From contig CAWJTV010000013.1 in NCBI GenBank assembly GCA_963845755.1, positions 128,001-192,000 of the forward strand: a DNA stretch of 64,000 nt, read 5' to 3'. The first letter of the stretch is position 1, and each line of letters starts with the position of its first letter. Shown piece after piece: positions 7,310 to 13,612 of this stretch. This stretch comes from an uncultured Planctomycetota bacterium. Its GTDB lineage: Bacteria > Planctomycetota > Planctomycetia > Isosphaerales > Isosphaeraceae. A program made the translations under genes and the position numbers. The notes beneath the pieces are model-generated. The model worked only from the letters and a program-made list of their open reading frames with translations. It was not told where the DNA came from and did no database searches.

Positions 7310-7530
7310 CGAAGACGATACAACCGAACCGGATAAAAGCTCTTCGGCGAGGAATGAAACAACTCGCGATCCTGAGTCAGGCCCAGGCTGGCGCGGAGCC
7401 CCTCCAGGTAAGGTCCCCACGTCTCGGGTCGATGTCCGGCGGCGGTTCGAACTGAGTCCCAGAGGAAGTGGGTGACGCGATACTGGGCGATCACCTCCTG
7501 GATCCGCCGGAACTCGTTTTTCTGGAAAGA
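7306..7530 (-). pseudogene. C-terminal fragment of an unidentified gene
   Basis: ..NEFRRIQEVIAQYRVTHFLWDS..YPVRLYRLR* has coding-like codon usage but no plausible N-terminus. Confidence 0.3.
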
Positions 7531-7587
7531 TCTTGCTCAGGGCCGCATTCTATGGTACCCTTAAACGTACCTTTGGAGGTACTGATC

Positions 7588-7863
7588 ATGGCTAGAGTCC
7601 CCGCCATCGTTCCGGTATCCGATCTCAGACAGGACGCGGCGGCCGTCCTGAAGAAGGCACGCGATTCGGATGAACCGATCTTCATTACACAGCGGGGGCG
7701 GGCGACGGCTGTCCTTCTGAGCATCGACGCCTTCGAGCGATCGGAGAACCAGCGAGAGCTCCTCCAACTCCTGGCTCGGGGCGAACAGGAGATTGCTAGC
7801 GGCATCGGCCACAGCCTTGACAGCGTGCTGACCGAAGCCGACACGCTCCTGTCGGAAGGCTGA
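7588..7863 (+). CDS. Type II antitoxin, Phd/YefM family
   Basis: GGAGG RBS; MARVPAIVPVSDLRQDAAAVLKKARDSDEPIFITQRGRATAVLLS. Three GTAC palindromes upstream (7555-7583) may be operators. Confidence 0.9.
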   Translation: MARVPAIVPVSDLRQDAAAVLKKARDSDEPIFITQRGRATAVLLSIDAFERSENQRELLQLLARGEQEIASGIGHSLDSVLTEADTLLSEG

Positions 7864-7865
7864 TC

Positions 7866-8162
7866 ATGGACGTTCGATTCACGGCCACGGGTCGGGCGCA
7901 GTTCCTCGGTGCGATCGATTCGATTCGTCGAAAGAGCCCCCAGGCCGCCCGGCAGTTTCGCCAGCGATCTGAGAAGTCGCTCAAGCGACTGGCGAAGTTC
8001 CCCAACTCCGGCGCGCTCGTTACCGAGTTCCGCCATCTGCCCTATCGCGAGGTGTATGTCCAGCCCTACCGGTTTTTCTACCGCGTTCGGGAAAAAACCG
8101 TATGGGTCGTTGCGGTCTGGCATGGTGCCCAGATCCCGGAGGAACCGGAGGCGCGGAGCTGA
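7866..8162 (+). CDS. Type II toxin, RelE/ParE family
   Basis: 98 aa, 2 bp after the antitoxin; LAKFPNSG..YREVYVQPYRFFYRV..VWVVAVWHG. Confidence 0.9.
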   Translation: MDVRFTATGRAQFLGAIDSIRRKSPQAARQFRQRSEKSLKRLAKFPNSGALVTEFRHLPYREVYVQPYRFFYRVREKTVWVVAVWHGAQIPEEPEARS

Positions 8163-8221: not shown

Positions 8222-9619
8222 TCACTGAGTTCGCCTTCGACTCAATTCCTCTTCGATCTGGTGAGCGGCGGCGGTGAGCCCTCGCACGTCCTTGAGCTTG
8301 GCCAGGTAGACGCATGCGCCGATCAATCCGCCGCCGTACATCAGCACGCGGAAGCCCAGCAACGCCAGATCGCCGCCAGGGTGGTCGACCAGATTGAAGA
8401 TCTGGGCGGCGACCAGCTCGCTGATACCCAGGGCGCCGAACGGCAGCGGCACGGCCGTCGTGAAGAGGATCAAGGGGACCATCAGGAAGTGCTGGGCGAT
8501 GGTGGTCGTCATCGCCGGGAAGAGCATCTTCCCGACGATGTAGAACGCGAGCACGTTGAGCGTATGGTTGCCCATCGACATCAACGTGCAGAACGAGACC
8601 ACGTCCAGCCGGCGCCGGTAGGTCGTCAACATCGACTTCAACTCGGAGACGATCAGGCTCAACCGGGAATGCCCCCTCCCGAGTTGAGGGAAGATCGCGG
8701 TGAACACCTGGCCGAAGATCGCGGCCAGGACCAGCACGCCAAGGCCGGTCGCGATCCAGGCGGCCACGATCAGGTTGCGGACCTCGGTCGGAGGGTTCGC
8801 ACTCCAGGCGATCAACCCGCCGATCGACGCCAGGATGAACAGGCCGAGGAGTCCGACGATCCGGTCGATCACCATGGACGCGATCGCCTGCGTCTTCTTG
8901 ATGTGCATCTTCGCCAGGTAGGCCGCCTTGATCAGGTCGCCCCCCACCGCGCCGGGGATCACCAGGTTGAACACGTTGCCGATGAAGCCCAGGAGGATCG
9001 CCGCGCGGAGGGTGAACCGCGGGTCGATGACCCGGACCAGGAGGAACCAGCGGAAGAATGTCGAGACCAGCCCGATCATGTAGATCACGAGCGCCAGCCC
9101 CAGCAAGCGGAGGTCCAGCGGGGGTCTGAAGAGGGTCTGACCGGTGATTGATGTTGCCTCGCTGAGGACCTGCACCGTCTCGGCACTGCTGAGGACCTGC
9201 TGGGGCAACCAGCCCGGGAGCTGCTGCTTGAGGGTCGCGATCGCGCCGGCTTGGCCGGTGGAGAGGCTCGACTCCAGCTCGTCCGACAGGATCTTGCCGG
9301 AGGCATCGGCGGACGCGAGGTGCAGCGCGCCGCTGCGATCGCTCGTCTCATAGGTGTCGGTGCGGACGCCGGCGGAATCGAAGGTCCGGATGTGGACCAG
9401 GCCGTTGTTGTCGAGGCCGGCGATGACGAGGTTGTTACCCGAGGTCGGCACCCCCGCGCCGTCCCCCCAGGACATCAATTGCAGGTCGGGCCCGCTGAAG
9501 ACCTCCTGGAGCTTGTACCGATTCCTCCAGATGACCCAGCCCAGCAGGCCGAAGGCCAGCGCCACCAGGAGGGCGTTGATGATCAATCCGAGCTTCGAGC
9601 GTGGTGCAGGATTTGTCAT
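8222..9619 (-). CDS. Lysylphosphatidylglycerol synthase TM-domain / UPF0104 flippase-like membrane protein with a 123-aa in-frame insertion
   Basis: RWFLLVR..FIGNVFNLVIPGAVGGDLIKA..DRIVGL..PFGALGISE motifs and multiple TM segments. Confidence 0.85.
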   Translation of the reverse strand: MTNPAPRSKLGLIINALLVALAFGLLGWVIWRNRYKLQEVFSGPDLQLMSWGDGAGVPTSGNNLVIAGLDNNGLVHIRTFDSAGVRTDTYETSDRSGALHLASADASGKILSDELESSLSTGQAGAIATLKQQLPGWLPQQVLSSAETVQVLSEATSITGQTLFRPPLDLRLLGLALVIYMIGLVSTFFRWFLLVRVIDPRFTLRAAILLGFIGNVFNLVIPGAVGGDLIKAAYLAKMHIKKTQAIASMVIDRIVGLLGLFILASIGGLIAWSANPPTEVRNLIVAAWIATGLGVLVLAAIFGQVFTAIFPQLGRGHSRLSLIVSELKSMLTTYRRRLDVVSFCTLMSMGNHTLNVLAFYIVGKMLFPAMTTTIAQHFLMVPLILFTTAVPLPFGALGISELVAAQIFNLVDHPGGDLALLGFRVLMYGGGLIGACVYLAKLKDVRGLTAAAHQIEEELSRRRTQ

Positions 9620-9856
9620 TTCGGACCATTGTTGGTAGTCATGAGAACGGTTCGCGAACCAGTCTCATTGAGATTATCATATATTATTTATTAAATTAAA
9701 TCTGGTGCATCTAGTGTTCTAGTGAACAGTATTTTCGGCCTGTTCCACCTGTTATGCTACCTGTTCTGAGGCACAAGGCTCCTGAGCGTCAATCGCTCTG
9801 GGTCGCGTACGCGCCGCGCGAGCACCATCGCGGGCGCGACACATTTGTGAACCTCT

Positions 9857-10459
9857 TTAGAGCGTTCCCTTGGTTGAGGGGACTCCAGGGCACCGGGGAT
9901 CCGCCTCGATCGCCGAGCGGAGGGCGCGGGCCGCCGCCTTGAAGATCGCCTCGCTGACGTGGTGCGTGTTGCGTCCGTGGTGCAGCAGGGCGTGGAAGTT
10001 CATCCGGCCGTGGTTGGCGACCGCCTGCCAGAAGTCGGCGACCAGCTCGCTGTCGAACGTGCCGATCTTGGGCGACGGCATCGTGACGTGCCATACCCAG
10101 TAGGGCCGACCGCCCAGGTCCACGGCGACGGTCACCAGCGTCTCATCCATCGGGAGCACCGCGTGGCCATACCGTCGGATACCCGCCCGATCGCCCAGCG
10201 CCCGATCGATCGCCTGGCCCAGGCAGATGCCCACGTCCTCGGTCGTGTGATGGTCGTCGACGTGCAGGTCCCCCGTACAGGCGACGGTCAGGTCCACGAG
10301 CGAATGCCGTGCGAACAGCTCGAGCATATGGTCGAGGAAGCCGACTCCCGTGCTCACCTCCGCCCGACCTTCCCCATCCAGCCGGAGGCTCAGGCGAATG
10401 TCGGTCTCTCGGGTCTTCCGCACGATCTCGGCGGAGCGTGCGGCCTGGTCATTAGTCAT
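9857..10459 (-). CDS. hisB: Imidazoleglycerol-phosphate dehydratase
   Basis: [25 protein letters not shown] and [20 protein letters not shown] motifs. Confidence 0.97.
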
Positions 10460-10480
10460 TGGTCATCAGTCATTGGTTAT
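10447..10480. repeat. 7-bp tandem repeat (RGTCATY x about 4.5) across the hisC stop and hisB start
   Basis: ggtcatt agtcatt ggtcatc agtcatt ggttat; it encodes the HisB N-terminus MTNDQ. Confidence 0.7.
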
Positions 10481-11532
10481 GGGGTCGAGATTTGACGAAG
10501 CGCCACGAGGAAACGGTCGATCTCCTCATCCGTGCCGACGCTGATCCTCAGGCCCTCGGGATAGCCGGGATAGGCCATCAGCCGGACCAGGATCTTGCGG
10601 TCCTTGAGCCGCCTGGAAGGTCGCTCGCGCCGGCGGGCCGCCGGTCGCCCAGACGAAGTTCGACTGGCTGTCGGGCACCTCGTAGCCCAGGGCGCGCAAG
10701 GCGTCGGTGAGTCGTGCACGCGTCGCCAGGACCTTGGCTCGCGTCACCGCCAGGTACTCTTGATCCAGGAGCGCGGCCACCCCGGCGACCTGGCTGAGCC
10801 TGTTGCAGTTATACGAGTCCTTGACCTTGATCAGGTGCTCGACAATCTCCGCCCGAGCCACCAGGTAGCCCAGGCGGATGCCGGCCAGGCTGTACCCCTT
10901 GCTGAAGGATCGCGTGACGATCACGTTGGGGTGTTCCGCCAGCAGGGGGATGCTGTGGTATTCCGGATCGGCGAAATCGGCATAGGCTTCGTCGACCAGG
11001 AGCGGACAGTCGAGCGAGCCCGCCAGCTCGGCGACCTCCGCGCGGGATCGCGGTGCCTGAGGGGCTGTCCGGATTGGCCAGGTAGACCAGCTTGAGGCCG
11101 GGTACGGCCAGCGCGCCGCGGTCGAGCCTCCAGTCCCGGGAATAGGGCACCGTCACGGCGCGACCGTCCTGGAGCTGGATGAGCGTCGCGTAGAGCAGAT
11201 AGCTCGGCGACGCGAAGGCCGCCGGGTCGCCCGGCCCGATGAAAGAGCCGCGTCACGACCGTCAGGATGTCATCCGATCCGTTGCCGGCCAGGATCATCT
11301 CGGGTTCGACCCCGTGCAACTGGGCCGCGGCCCGACACAACTCGGTGCACATCGGGTCGGGATAGAGGCGGAGCCGGTCGGTGACCGCCTCCGCGATCGC
11401 CGCCTTGACCTGGGGCGAGGGAGGATAGGGATTCTCGTTGGTGTTCAGCTTGGTGAATCCGCCGTCGCGCGGCTGTTCGCCCGGCAGATAACCGGCCATC
11501 CGCGCGATGTTCGGACGAAAGAAGCGGCTCAT
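10477..11532 (-). CDS. hisC: Histidinol-phosphate aminotransferase (several indels)
   Basis: KLNTNENPYPP, AGNGSDD, ANPDSPSG, RSFSKGYSLAGIRLG and LRISVGT are spread over ORFs 10921-11565, 10809-11156, 10526-10924 and 10477-10719. Confidence 0.93.
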
Positions 11533-11565
11533 CCCGTTCGGGTCCTCTGGGGCCGTCGCGAACAA

Positions 11566-12120
11566 TCAGGATTCTTGGGCCAGGGCGGCGAGGTGGCGGA
11601 GCGGTTCGTCGTCGAGGCGGTAGACGGTCCACTCGTCCATGGGCCTGGCCCCCACCGCGCGGTAGAAGGCGATCGACGGGGCGTTCCAGTCGAGCACAGA
11701 CCACTCCAGCCGGCCGCAGCCGCGCTCCACGGCCAGCCGGGCGAGGAATGCCAGCAGGGCCTTGCCGATCCCTCGGCCGCGGAATTCCGGCCTCACGAAG
11801 AGATCCTCGAGGTACAGCCCGGGCTGGCCTCGGAACGTCGAGAAGTTGGAGAACCACAGGGCAAAGCCGGCCGGCTCCCCTTCGACCTCAGCGAGGGCGG
11901 CCTCGGCGGCGGGGCGCGGGCCGAAGAGGTGCCGGCGGAAGTCGTCGGGCGTCGCCTTCGCGTACGGTTCCAACTTCTCGTAGATCGCCAGCTCGCGGAC
12001 CAGGTTCACCAGGGTCTCCGCATCGTCGGGCCGGGCCGGCCGGATCGTGAACGAGGCGGTCCGGAAGCCGTTGAATCGCGATGGCGTCGATTCGGACCGC
12101 TCGTTCGGCGCGGAATTCAT
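11566..12120 (-). CDS. GNAT family N-acetyltransferase (diamine/SSAT-like)
   Basis: RELAIYEKL..FSTFRGQPGLYLEDLFVRPEFRGRGIGKALL..WSVLDWNAPSIAFY; ATG 12120 overlaps the hisD stop (ATGA). Confidence 0.9.
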   Translation of the reverse strand: MNSAPNERSESTPSRFNGFRTASFTIRPARPDDAETLVNLVRELAIYEKLEPYAKATPDDFRRHLFGPRPAAEAALAEVEGEPAGFALWFSNFSTFRGQPGLYLEDLFVRPEFRGRGIGKALLAFLARLAVERGCGRLEWSVLDWNAPSIAFYRAVGARPMDEWTVYRLDDEPLRHLAALAQES

Positions 12121-13491
12121 GACGGGCGTTCTCCTTCCAAGTCTCCCTCGACCCGGAGGTTGACACTCAGGCGGTGCGCAGTCGAGCCCTTCTTTGTCGG
12201 CGAGGAGGCGGATATCGGGCGCCAGCGCGGCGAGCCCGTCGCGCGACAGGGCGATCAGGCTCGACCGCTTGAGGAAGTCGTTCACCGAGAGCCCCGAGGC
12301 CCATCGGGCGATTCCACTGGTGGGGAGCACATGCGAGGGCCCAGCGGCGTAATCGCCCGCGGCGACCGGCGAAAAATGGCCCAGGAAGATCGCGCCGGCA
12401 TTGGTCAGCCGCGGAAGGAGCCGTTTTGGATCGAACGTCGAGACGTGCAGGTGTTCGGGCGCAATCCGATTCGAAAGCGTCACGGCCTCGGACTCGTCAC
12501 GGGTGAGGACCATCGCCCCGAACCGTTCGAGGCTGTCGTGCGCCAGGCTGCCCCGGCTCAGCCTCTTGAGCTGCTCCTCCAGGGCCACGACGACGCGATC
12601 GATCAGCGACGGCTCCCAGGTCAGGAGGATGCTGGCGCCCGGCGAATGTTCGGCCTGGCTGATCAGGTCCGCGGCGAGGAACCTGGGGATCGCGGTGGCG
12701 TCGGCGATCACGACGACCTCGCTCGGCCCGGCGATGCAGTCGATGTCAACCGTGCCATAGACGTGCCGCTTGGCCAGCGCAACGAAGAGGTTTCCCGGCC
12801 CGACGATCTTGTCCACGGGCTCGAGCCCGATCTCGCGGATCCCGTAGGCCAGGGCGGCGACGCCTTGCGCACCGCCGATCCGGTAGACCTCCGAAACGCC
12901 CAACGCCTGACAGGCGGCCAGGAGATCGACATTGTAGCCGCCGAATCGCGTGGGGGGGACGATAACGGCGATCTCGGCGACCCCCGCCGCCTGGGCCGGG
13001 ACGACCGTCATGAGCAAACTCGAGGGATAGGCCGCCGCCCCGCCGGGGATGCAGACCCCCACCCGTCGCAACGGCCGGTAGAGCATTCCCAGCTCGATCC
13101 CCGGCCCGCGGTCGAGCCGGACGTCGCCGTGCCGGATGGCCTCCTGATAAGCCAGGATGTTGCCACGGACCCGATCGATCGTCTCGAGAAAGGCGGGATC
13201 GGCCTGACGATGGGCGTCGGCCAGCTCGTCCGCCGAAACCCGGAGTTGGCCCGGCTCGAGCACGGCGCCGTCGAGGCTACGGCCGTAGTCGAGCACAGCG
13301 TCGAGCCCGCGCGCGGCGACGTCGTCGCAGATCCGCTCGACGACTTGCCGGGGCTCCAGGGCTTCGCCGAACGCCGCAATGGTTCGCGCACGCCCCTCGG
13401 GGCTCACCACGTTCCCCCGGGGACTCAACTCGGCGCGGAGCTCGGCGATCGCCCGCTCCGCGTCGTCACTGGCGCAGTCGATTCGTCGCAT
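12117..13491 (-). CDS. hisD: Histidinol dehydrogenase (one extra base near 12180)
   Basis: PGGAAAYPSS, GGAQGVAALAYG, KIVGPGN, IDCIAGPSE, SQAEH, APEHL, GDYAAGPSHVLPT. The corrected C-terminus reads EGLTAHRLSVNLR..PS*. Confidence 0.95.
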
Positions 13492-13612
13492 TCTCAGCGC
13501 CACTCTTGGCTCCCCGACTTCTCCAGGTGAGGCACGATGCACGATCTCAGGCCGGATGTCTCGATCGCCTCACCATGGGGTTAGACACGCGTGGGGAACC
13601 CTCCGGCTCTTT

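Follow-up and report, generated by a model that had tools for sequence, protein, structure and literature searches.

The in-frame insert in a flippase-like membrane protein gene of the window (the whole 64,000-nucleotide stretch of Isosphaeraceae DNA that was analysed) is very probably a non-autonomous DNA transposon (MITE) with ISKra4-family ends, and most likely a tolerated passenger of its host protein, not a functional addition to it. The element has no transposase gene, is bounded by terminal inverted repeats (TIRs) and a target duplication of fixed length (8 bp), has its ends in common with an autonomous insertion sequence (IS) of the same genome, and is present at sites that are filled in one genome and empty in the orthologues of another, with sister copies elsewhere. 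The proposal of a self-spreading in-frame coding insert, made in the initial annotation, is upheld by these features.

The host protein matches PF03706 over residues 168-428 (E=1.3e-27, 97.5 bits vs a gathering score of 33.4); with TIGR00374, the NCBIfam flippase-like domain model, it reaches 39.7 bits, just under the cutoff of 43.2. Its reading frame is intact despite the insert, which is placed after the first hydrophobic segment because the PF03706 match begins at profile position 31, in agreement with the loop after TM1 that had been suggested. On the + strand, the two copies of CTGAAGA that first marked the insert occupy 9126-9132 and 9495-9501, as described; they are offset by 369 bp, and both fall within the 465-aa open reading frame. 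By itself, this repeat is no more than chance: the 7-mer is seen 6 times in the window vs 6.13 expected, and several 7-bp direct repeats are, by our own estimate, expected per 500 bp. The repeat gains meaning because the empty allele of G001, a genome of the same genus as that of the window (G000), has the target a single time (GTCTTCAGC CAC CCG) with the junction exactly there; the junction was placed by an explicit split scan of the filled vs the empty allele, in which the best split fell exactly at the target. The repeat is not coincidental. Once the conserved ends of the element are taken into account, the duplication in the window extends to 8 bp, TCTTCAGC vs TCTTCAGA, identical at 7/8 positions and with the original 7-mer as its core.

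The ends of the window element are in register with those of 31 other copies, and its two terminal arms pair at 16/22 positions; the identities of the arms to the IS given in Table 1 were read by eye. Translated in frame, the element yields ~120 residues. It adds 369 bp, not 294, because of a 75-bp (25-codon) internal duplication, in which positions 114-155 of the DNA profile occur twice with 33 unaligned bases between them. The internal duplicated motif noticed at the outset is recovered by both profiles, the protein profile matching the window copy as 1-55 then 29-91 and the DNA profile as 3-155 then 114-284, and a 24-residue extra block is seen in alignments. In the protein, the duplication is predicted to add a beta hairpin to the fold, the model of the window copy having six beta strands vs four in the canonical fold.

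Table 1. Coordinates of the host gene and of the parts of the inserted element in the window
Feature	Position	Strand	Basis or remark
Host gene: flippase-like membrane protein, PF03706 LPG_synthase_TM / UPF0104 type	8222..9619	-	ORF, 465 aa
Inserted element, 361 bp: canonical 286-bp module-coding MITE plus 75-bp internal duplication (probable)	9133..9493	-	filled/empty comparison with G001
Target-site duplication, upstream copy in gene orientation: TCTTCAGC (gene strand)	9494..9501	-	part of V-F-S
Target-site duplication, downstream copy in gene orientation: TCTTCAGA (gene strand)	9125..9132	-	part of L-F-R
Terminal inverted repeat, 5' end in gene orientation: GGGCCCGACCTGCAATTGATGT (gene strand)	9472..9493	-	16/22 identical to IS terminal repeat
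Terminal inverted repeat, other end: GGGTCTGACCGGTGATTGATGT (+ strand)	9133..9154	+	19/22 identical to IS terminal repeat
Internal partial duplication region, boundaries approximate	9267..9383	-	nhmmer coordinates

Filled and empty alleles can be compared at several sites. The flippase-like orthologue of G001 (L018:1384-2442, 352 aa) lacks the insert, and the segment was not found in any of the orthologues examined. In the other 39 genomes, flippase-like matches start at or beyond query residue 135, nearly all of them at 160-184; three of these genomes have an insert-only match, in another gene. An MMPL gene is filled in G000 and empty in G001, G015 and G012, and four genes are filled in G001 and empty in G000, each with a gain of exactly 294 nt. 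All six testable sites thus differ between the two congeners, with no insertion site common to both; outgroups identify four of the six as gains, among them two of the four G001-filled sites (hosts L071 and L074). For the C33, C11 and C36-kinase hosts, no G001 orthologues were found, and the C34 host has a partial homologue there, 60% identical. A contig from a metagenome is identical over 9400-9550, spanning the insert junction; the empty-site joint was not found in four metagenome runs with patchy cover, a result that has no bearing on polymorphism.

The canonical element is ~286 bp long and, together with its 8-bp duplication, produces a net gain of 294 bp, or 98 codons. Copies measure 279-309 bp, most of them 285 (the canonical 286 includes the terminal C), and the window copy 361 bp. 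The sole open frame, which is open in 32/32 copies compared with 0-19% for the other frames, encodes a 95-residue module without a match to any transposase family. The target duplication matches at at least 6/8 positions in 13/32 copies vs 0.75% of 930 control offsets, it is perfect (8/8) in four of the 32, and in a 9-mer scan its signal peaks on a fixed-spacing diagonal.

A candidate parent is present in this genome: an autonomous IS of 1,421 bp in three copies that are 99.9-100% identical, all with 8-bp duplications (3/3; two perfect, one 7/8). The ends of this IS form a 22-bp perfect inverted repeat (...CACCC) that matches the consensus ends of the element. Its open reading frame, at L088:564-1847 on the - strand, has no match in Pfam and scores 205.8 bits with the NCBIfam ISKra4 model NF033572 (cutoff 205; E=1.2e-60; profile positions 37-416 of 422), a putative family assignment that is marginal by score. 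For ISKra4 members, PMC3942029 gives inverted repeats of 18-39 bp that end in C, and direct repeats of 8 or 9 bp; the inverted repeat (22 bp, terminal C) and the 8-bp duplications of the IS fit this description. In G012 and G015, remnants of ISKra4 elements are bounded by the same ends, as are sibling MITEs in G014 that are non-coding and full of stops.

Among the observations that count against the MITE reading are the following: (i) in 19/32 copies the target duplication matches at fewer than 6/8 positions, which we tentatively attribute to decay; (ii) a near-identical donor of the window element was not found, its closest paralogue (C36) being 77% identical in DNA and no pair among the 32 copies exceeding 80%; (iii) transposase and module show no clean co-occurrence across relatives. 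As to the second point, the divergence of copies from the family consensus is 13-23%, about the same as the per-lineage synonymous divergence between the two genomes (pS 0.23-0.48), so that decay since insertion explains the missing donor. As to the third, the module matches 10 times in G001, where several gains are lineage-specific, yet the ISKra4 relative found there is only 31% identical, and in G015 the transposase is 73% identical and no module was found; many of these assemblies are incomplete (for example, G000 and G001 about 87-88%, G012 60%).

The module is present in 60/121 genomes of the family and, in a representative library, in 1,740 protein clusters, a single protein having as many as 5 copies, nearly always in frame within unrelated genes; 38/41 matches sit in open frames of at least 227 aa. 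The look-alike segments in other proteins to which the initial annotation had pointed do exist (L042, L058, L062, L045 and the C36 copy); together with them, the window copy forms a distinct W-G-D-G subfamily. With sister copies inside unrelated genes, the segment is not single-copy. Besides membrane transporters, hosts include normally cytoplasmic protein types (patatin, SIR2_2, STAND/AAA NTPases, a kinase and a NuoF-type flavoprotein), and the alternative suggestion of an extracytoplasmic domain is therefore unsupported. The module is predicted to form a compact small beta/alpha domain of ~95 residues (beta4-alpha2) with a pLDDT of about 90 (89.8; window copy 89.5). Its consensus starts with G-x-D-L-R-L-M and ends with S-I-V-G-x-T, and none of the 32 copies deviates at R36, F38 or G42. 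Searches for relatives returned little: the window insert matches 0 Pfam families at E<=1, Pfam-A against the 32 copies gave just two isolated weak matches, to different families, and in 26 host proteins the module lies outside all Pfam matches. Foldseek with the module model had no match in the PDB at E<=0.001 (best E=0.14), VIA-align ranked a YTH domain best (Z=5.8, 85 aligned, rmsd 3.7), which is below the background of Z 7-8 stated for the tool, and a protein atlas search gave no usable match. A profile search of PDB sequences marginally matched positions 13-44 to Brat chains (E=0.0024), with no stretch passing alone; this may be a lead, and on the origin of the module only.

The confident fold and the roughly 1,700 clusters could also point to a function of the module, which counts against a passenger. 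In this alternative, the module would be MITE-born but domesticated, kept as a useful folded domain, for example for interaction or oligomerisation in signalling or defence-type proteins. The compactness and confidence of a fold predicted from only 26-32 sequences, the repeated copies per protein, the invariant residues, and a pN below saturation with pS near saturation all speak for it, as does the finding that many of 26 scanned hosts are WD40, STAND/AAA, patatin, SIR2_2 or kinase proteins. We nevertheless consider domestication unlikely. The module evolves under weak constraint: its raw pN/pS is ~0.67, a much weaker constraint than the 0.19-0.43 of host genes (0.27 for the flippase-like gene vs its G001 orthologue), although these values, computed as raw pN and pS only, are a rough guide because synonymous sites are near saturation. 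Some pairs are almost neutral (80% nt vs 62% aa), the hosts are functionally unrelated and lie on both membrane sides, and orthologues do without the module at 6/6 testable sites, none of which congeners share. A tolerated MITE remains the preferred reading of the module.

An ordinary promiscuous domain, spread by illegitimate or microhomology recombination, would account for the repeat as microhomology and for the likeness of the ends as an amino-acid by-product. N-terminal, internal and C-terminal placements in many architectures would suit such a domain, as would the chance frequency of the 7-mer alone and the host sequence P-L-D-L-R-L-L beside the junction, which by eye loosely resembles the module start D-L-R-L-M. 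This explanation is highly improbable, since the insert is constant at 294 nt in 4/4 G001/G000 pairs, the duplication lies at a fixed register, and the 22-bp ends with the 8-bp duplication are also found on the autonomous IS and on non-coding MITEs. Moreover, the ends of the element are constrained as DNA, with ~22-bp TIRs and rare synonymous codons kept on both sides: Leu at codon 6 is TTG in 24/27 (11% genome-wide) and Arg is CGA in 17/22 (14%), and CTA (10/24; 2%), TCA (13/23; 5%), ACA (8/13; 6%) and GGT (12/16; 13%) are likewise used. The consensus arms agree at 20/21 positions, read by eye. Over 32 copies, the inverted repeat averages 12.2/22 (window 16/22), vs 5.6 +/- 2.1 for internal controls (maximum 13 of 5,985) and 7.7 +/- 0.3 for the same proteins with redrawn codons (maximum 8.6 of 500), and thus exceeds what the amino acids dictate. 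These values apply to a register moved by one base in line with the consensus ends, the first register being signal-free (5.7/27 vs 6.2-6.6 in controls); the ends of the IS independently confirm the register used.

An ancestral insert, lost from G001 and other lineages by precise deletion between the short direct repeats, is hardly credible: although such recombination leaves one copy, as at the empty site, no flippase-like match of the other 39 genomes covers the insert, the MMPL, L071 and L074 hosts are empty in 3, 3 and 4 other genomes, respectively, and many independent precise deletions would be required at each site.

The MITE could have spread in the following manner: The transposase of the 1,421-bp IS elsewhere in the genome would recognise the ~22-bp TIRs, insert the ~286-bp element and duplicate 8 bp of target. 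As the net gain of 294 bp is exactly 98 codons, insertion never shifts the reading frame downstream. The one open frame of the element would then encode the ~95-residue domain, predicted to fold on its own. If the insertion has the right orientation and phase and lies in a tolerant loop, the host protein may still work and the insertion persist; insertions in the other five frames would meet stop codons and be lost, and intergenic copies would presumably be removed by deletion. A DNA-profile search of G000 found neither intergenic nor out-of-frame copies, so that random insertion alone is insufficient and such a selection and deletion argument, or a targeting bias, is needed. In the flippase-like gene, the element would have inserted into the loop that follows TM1, at some time after the split from G001, and the window copy may have acquired its 75-bp duplication later. 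While the anatomy of the element can be read off the sequence, the transposition reaction is what we infer from it. There is about an even chance that the whole constitutes a lineage specialised for coding sequence, with an inert self-folding interior and a length that, counted together with the duplication, is divisible by three, which seeds domains, some of them maybe used.

Rickettsia palindromic elements (RPEs), reportedly the subject of work by Ogata et al. in 2000 and 2002, appear to be the closest precedent. The analogy had been drawn in the initial annotation and holds for the in-frame habit and for the larger size of the present element, but not for a strong palindrome at the RNA level: the window element folds with -157.1 kcal/mol vs -154.9 +/- 6.3 for shuffles (z = -0.35), pairing is limited to the termini, and the stable hairpin is absent. 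RPEs are described as short repeats that lie in frame inside unrelated genes, a habit unusually frequent among them (PMC10969869), and both kinds of element encode a conserved peptide that the host tolerates. However, RPEs are about 150 bp long according to that source, compared with 286 bp here, encoding a domain of 95 residues whose fold is predicted with confidence. The present element has ~22-bp TIRs, duplicates 8 bp of target and can be paired with an autonomous IS, whereas the account of RPEs in PMC10969869, as far as its passages on these elements go, names no transposase or insertion mechanism. Moreover, the host here is no obligate intracellular bacterium but a family of free-living planctomycetes whose genomes are very large.

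ISKra4 corresponds to p-MULT 4 of the prokaryotic Mutator-like DDE transposases (Guerillot et al. 2014, PMC3942029), and the element has the ends and the 8-bp duplication length of its parent IS. That paper covers ISs, transposons and, for some ISKra4 members, promoter-proximal insertion; nowhere does the main text use the term MITE. The interior of the present element is protein-coding and embedded in larger open frames, in contrast to its non-coding G014 siblings. Other MITEs are non-autonomous as well and sometimes fuse in frame, adding residues: occasional in-frame insertions are described for Coxiella QMITE1/2 (PMC5896051) and for ERIC, BOX and Anabaena MITEs (PMC10969869). As these sources portray them, such fusions are incidental, the copies mostly intergenic, and the peptides short, basic or unstructured, whereas for the present element in-frame genic residence is the rule and the product is predicted to be a folded domain. 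Among the titles and abstracts listed on ISKra4 MITEs and on planctomycete miniature inverted-repeat elements, none concerns an in-frame coding MITE of this kind. Inteins, too, are selfish sequences held in frame within host genes. A length of 95 residues is too small for the HINT fold, and neither the conserved N-terminal Cys/Ser/Thr nucleophile nor the C-terminal His-Asn is present in the alignment of 32 copies, as the first inspection of the window copy had indicated; the spread of the element takes place at the DNA level, duplicates the target and does not involve homing to a single cognate site.

Our picture of in-frame selfish DNA in bacterial genes has so far rested mostly on RPEs. In the present case, every link can be seen in the sequences: an IS that looks active, a miniature derivative with its ends, 8-bp duplications, dated filled and empty sites between sister species, and a confidently folding product. 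This makes it possible to test how coding sequence tolerates transposons, whether a transposon can come to encode a benign protein, and how new domains enter mid-protein. For annotation, it means that a ~95-residue "domain" that recurs in hundreds of planctomycete proteins is probably the footprint of a transposon and not a sign of shared function, and that the flippase-like gene and the other hosts should be compared with the module removed. If the lineage is indeed specialised for coding sequence, in-frame landings would be harmless and the element would persist where ordinary MITEs cannot. It would then be a natural engine of domain insertion, which has placed one ~95-residue fold in well over a thousand unrelated proteins of a single bacterial family, and some copies of the module may since have gained a use.

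In the flippase-like gene, PF03706 (LPG_synthase_TM) is matched only over residues 168-428 of the 465-aa ORF and from profile position 31 onwards (97.5 bits), indicating ~125 extra residues after the first hydrophobic segment, ahead of the remaining domain. The direct repeat CTGAAGA, which the initial annotation had placed around an in-frame insert, is confirmed at 9126-9132 and 9495-9501, with a spacing of 369 bp; by itself the heptamer is unremarkable (six occurrences in the window, 6.13 expected). No Pfam family matched the insert at E≤1. A metagenome contig, from a run that is possibly the assembly's own source, matches 9400-9550 exactly across the insert junction; the insertion is therefore not an assembly artefact. 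The gene is still constrained (pN/pS 0.27). Its 3' end is adjoined, on the opposite strand, by a Phd/YefM antitoxin (PF02604) and ParE toxin (PF05016) pair (7468-8162, +). Directly upstream of its start lies an AT-rich stretch (9640-9720, e.g. ...TTATCATATATTATTTATTAAATTAAATCT...; genome 64% G+C), possibly the promoter region, and a histidine-biosynthesis cluster occupies 9857-13542 (-), where the split aminotransferase suggests a frameshift, genuine or a sequencing error.

When the whole protein was searched against its own genome (G000) and 40 related ones, the same-genus genome G001 yielded a 352-aa flippase-like gene whose matches to residues 1-44 (80%) and 163-461 (92%) adjoin directly within a single frame. 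In the other 39 genomes, no flippase-like match covers the insert: their starts lie no earlier than query residue 135, and almost all fall at 160-184; three genomes gave an insert-only match, located in a different gene. A split scan placed the junctions (slashes) at ...GTCTTCAGC/CACCCG... in G001 and at ...GTCTTCAGC/GGGCCC...ACCCTCTTCAGA/CCCCCG... in G000, so that the empty site holds a single CTGAAGA and the insert is flanked by two: the empty-site allele proposed for search among orthologues exists. None of the 10 module profile matches in G001 lies at a G000 site. For four of their hosts G000 has an orthologue, ~79-93% identical over the main blocks, that lacks the module and whose flanks abut; in DNA, each of these G001 sites is longer by exactly 294 nt, and the 6-9-bp overlap flanking it occurs only once in G000. 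In outgroup comparison, the host site of locus L071 is empty in G000, G015 and G008, and that of L074 in G000, G015, G456 and G012; the G000 MMPL insertion was not found in G001, G015 or G012. The congeners differ at six sites, the window gene included, four of them polarised gains, two per lineage; no module site common to both was found among the sites compared.

The proposed check for further copies in the same genome was positive: a six-frame search of G000 (14.27 Mb) with an iterated profile gave seven loci, the window included, in unrelated genes whose identities Pfam confirmed, and a DNA-profile search of G000 found no copies beyond those already known. Given its 1-nt deletion and short open frame, the frameshifted C36 copy is a decayed one; its flanking duplication is unrecognisable. 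In the profile search that yielded the 10 matches of G001, 38 of 41 matches sit in open frames of at least 227 aa. Against a library of 1.84 billion representatives, a six-copy profile matched 1,740 clusters at E≤0.001 (1,268 at 1e-10), the module being present one to five times per protein, at any position. No Pfam family covers the module in 26 such proteins; these hosts include SIR2_2, nSTAND1/AAA_35-WD40, kinase-WD40, FGE-sulfatase+VWA, subtilase, KaiC-type ATPase and NuoF-type flavoprotein, as well as a patatin whose profile-aligned span (2-333) encloses the module (161-252). In homologues of the C34 TM+HEAT protein (G456:C17:195288-196508, G012:C96:162617-163809), the module belongs to a different subfamily and lies ~120 residues further downstream than in G000, apparently an independent insertion into a gene of the same type. 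Two to five modules share one open frame in G478:C58:192408-193247, G468:C20:207142-208335, P0002 and P0009; some genes were thus hit repeatedly, or the module was duplicated locally.

Features of the window, module copies in G000, insertion sequences (IS) and related elements; locations lacking a contig are window positions
Feature	Location	Strand	Remarks
Flippase-like gene	8222..9619	-	465-aa ORF
hisB (IGPD)	9857-10459	-	histidine-biosynthesis cluster
Aminotransferase between hisB and histidinol dehydrogenase	10526-10924 and 10921-11565	-	split over at least two frames
Histidinol dehydrogenase + C-terminal GNAT acetyltransferase fusion	11566-13542	-	658 aa; histidine-biosynthesis cluster
Module copy	C11		WD40-like protein
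Module copy	C33		636-aa protein, no Pfam family
Module copy	C36		kinase-WD40 protein, module residues 513-602
Module copy	C34		TM+HEAT protein
Module copy	C37		MMPL transporter, module residues 672-764, directly before second MMPL block
Frameshifted module copy (L016/L002)	C36:341756-342031		1-nt deletion; open frame only 105 aa
ISKra4-family IS, 1,421 bp	G000:C11:365214-366634		22-bp perfect terminal repeat, 8-bp duplication
ISKra4-family IS, further copy	C11:558125-559545		8-bp duplication
ISKra4-family IS, further copy	C27:240631-242051		8-bp duplication
Non-coding MITE, ~292 bp (L108)	G014:C2:185666-185959		same terminal repeats, palindromic interior, 7-8-bp flanking duplication
Non-coding MITE, ~393 bp (L109)	G014:C15:102601-102995		same terminal repeats, palindromic interior, 7-8-bp flanking duplication

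Across 31 full copies from 12 genomes placed in register, the element ends are conserved at the DNA level and rare synonymous codons prevail there (genome-wide shares in brackets): TTG in 24 of 27 Leu (11%), CGA in 17 of 22 Arg (14%), CTA in 10 of 24 (2%), TCA in 13 of 23 (5%), ACA in 8 of 13 (6%) and GGT in 12 of 16 (13%). The ends are inverted repeats, with a mean of 12.2 of 22 positions matching over 32 copies (window copy, 16 of 22), as against 5.6 ± 2.1 in internal windows (maximum 13 among 5,985) and 7.7 ± 0.3 when codons were redrawn at genome-wide usage with the protein sequences kept (maximum 8.6 among 500). The flanking duplication sits at a fixed register; on an 8-bp model, at least six of eight positions match in 13 of 32 copies (four perfect) versus 0.75% of 930 control offsets, which upholds the earlier reading of the direct repeat as an insertion footprint. 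A 286-bp element and an 8-bp duplication make 294 bp, or 98 codons, and the module's frame is the only one open throughout all copies. The anatomy of the insert is that of a transposon, presumably brought to its sites by transposition.

The parent IS was reached through weak paired matches of the right-end model in G000. Its 427-aa ORF exceeds the NCBIfam ISKra4 cutoff (205.8 vs 205); the three G000 copies are mutually 99.9-100% identical, and the IS looks recently active. Its perfect 22-bp terminal repeat, GGGTGTGACCGACGATTGATGT, borne by all three copies, agrees with the consensus ends of the module element. In G012 and G015 this pattern borders ISKra4 remnants, and the reversed pattern, searched as a control, gave zero matches. 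Degenerate IS relatives lie at C11:879433-880711 and C13:271839-273121 (with TGA stops). Bracketed by this repeat in G014, L108 and L109 are siblings of the coding element with the same transposase ends. Across relatives, transposase and module co-occur in part only. According to excerpts of Guerillot et al. 2014 (PMC3942029), Planctomycetes are among the carriers of p-MULT 4, and members of the superfamily have inverted repeats of 18-39 bp bearing a terminal C, with direct repeats 8 or 9 bp long.

A fold of four strands followed by two helices is predicted for the canonical module (pLDDT 89.8, pTM 0.81); the window copy (120 residues; pLDDT 89.5, pTM 0.81) has the same helices and six strands, in agreement with profile evidence of a duplicated hairpin, so that the internal duplicated motif suspected earlier holds. 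A PDB search with the module model gave no assignable fold, no curated protein family exists for the module, and RNA folding of the element is not unusual. Profile positions 13-44 (e.g. L038:1504-1788) match Brat chains in the PDB marginally (E=0.0024), presumably its NHL-repeat beta-propeller domain; the stretch G-K-N-L-I-V-V-A...L-H-F-R-I-F-D resembles, to our eye, a single NHL-type blade, a possible hint that the interior may have been captured from a propeller-repeat gene.

The module occurs in 60 of 121 family genomes (30 of 53 genera), mainly larger ones, in 1-15 copies each; in 400 other genomes sampled across the phylum it was not found at E≤1e-8 among the 12 candidates scored per genome. 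Copies average 59% identity in DNA (maximum 80%) and 42% in protein, the nearest to the window copy being L042 (71%) and, within G000, the decayed C36 copy (77% DNA). Since main-subfamily copies differ from their consensus by 13-23% and G000/G001 orthologues show pS of 0.23-0.48 (pN/pS 0.19-0.43), near-neutral decay since insertion accounts for the missing close donor.

Judged by titles and abstracts, the listed literature on ISKra4-related and planctomycete MITEs contains no in-frame coding MITE of this kind. The proposal of a self-spreading in-frame insert is sustained by multiple copies, empty sites and transposon ends; Rickettsia palindromic elements, with which it was compared, are the closest precedent in the parts consulted of a review (PMC10969869); incidental in-frame MITE fusions are described for Coxiella and others in excerpts of PMC5896051. 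In contrast to both, the interior of this MITE is itself a predicted folding domain, the element resides almost solely in frame within genes, and its partner IS is identifiable. Inside the module, raw pN/pS is ~0.67, and in its hosts it is presumably a tolerated passenger.
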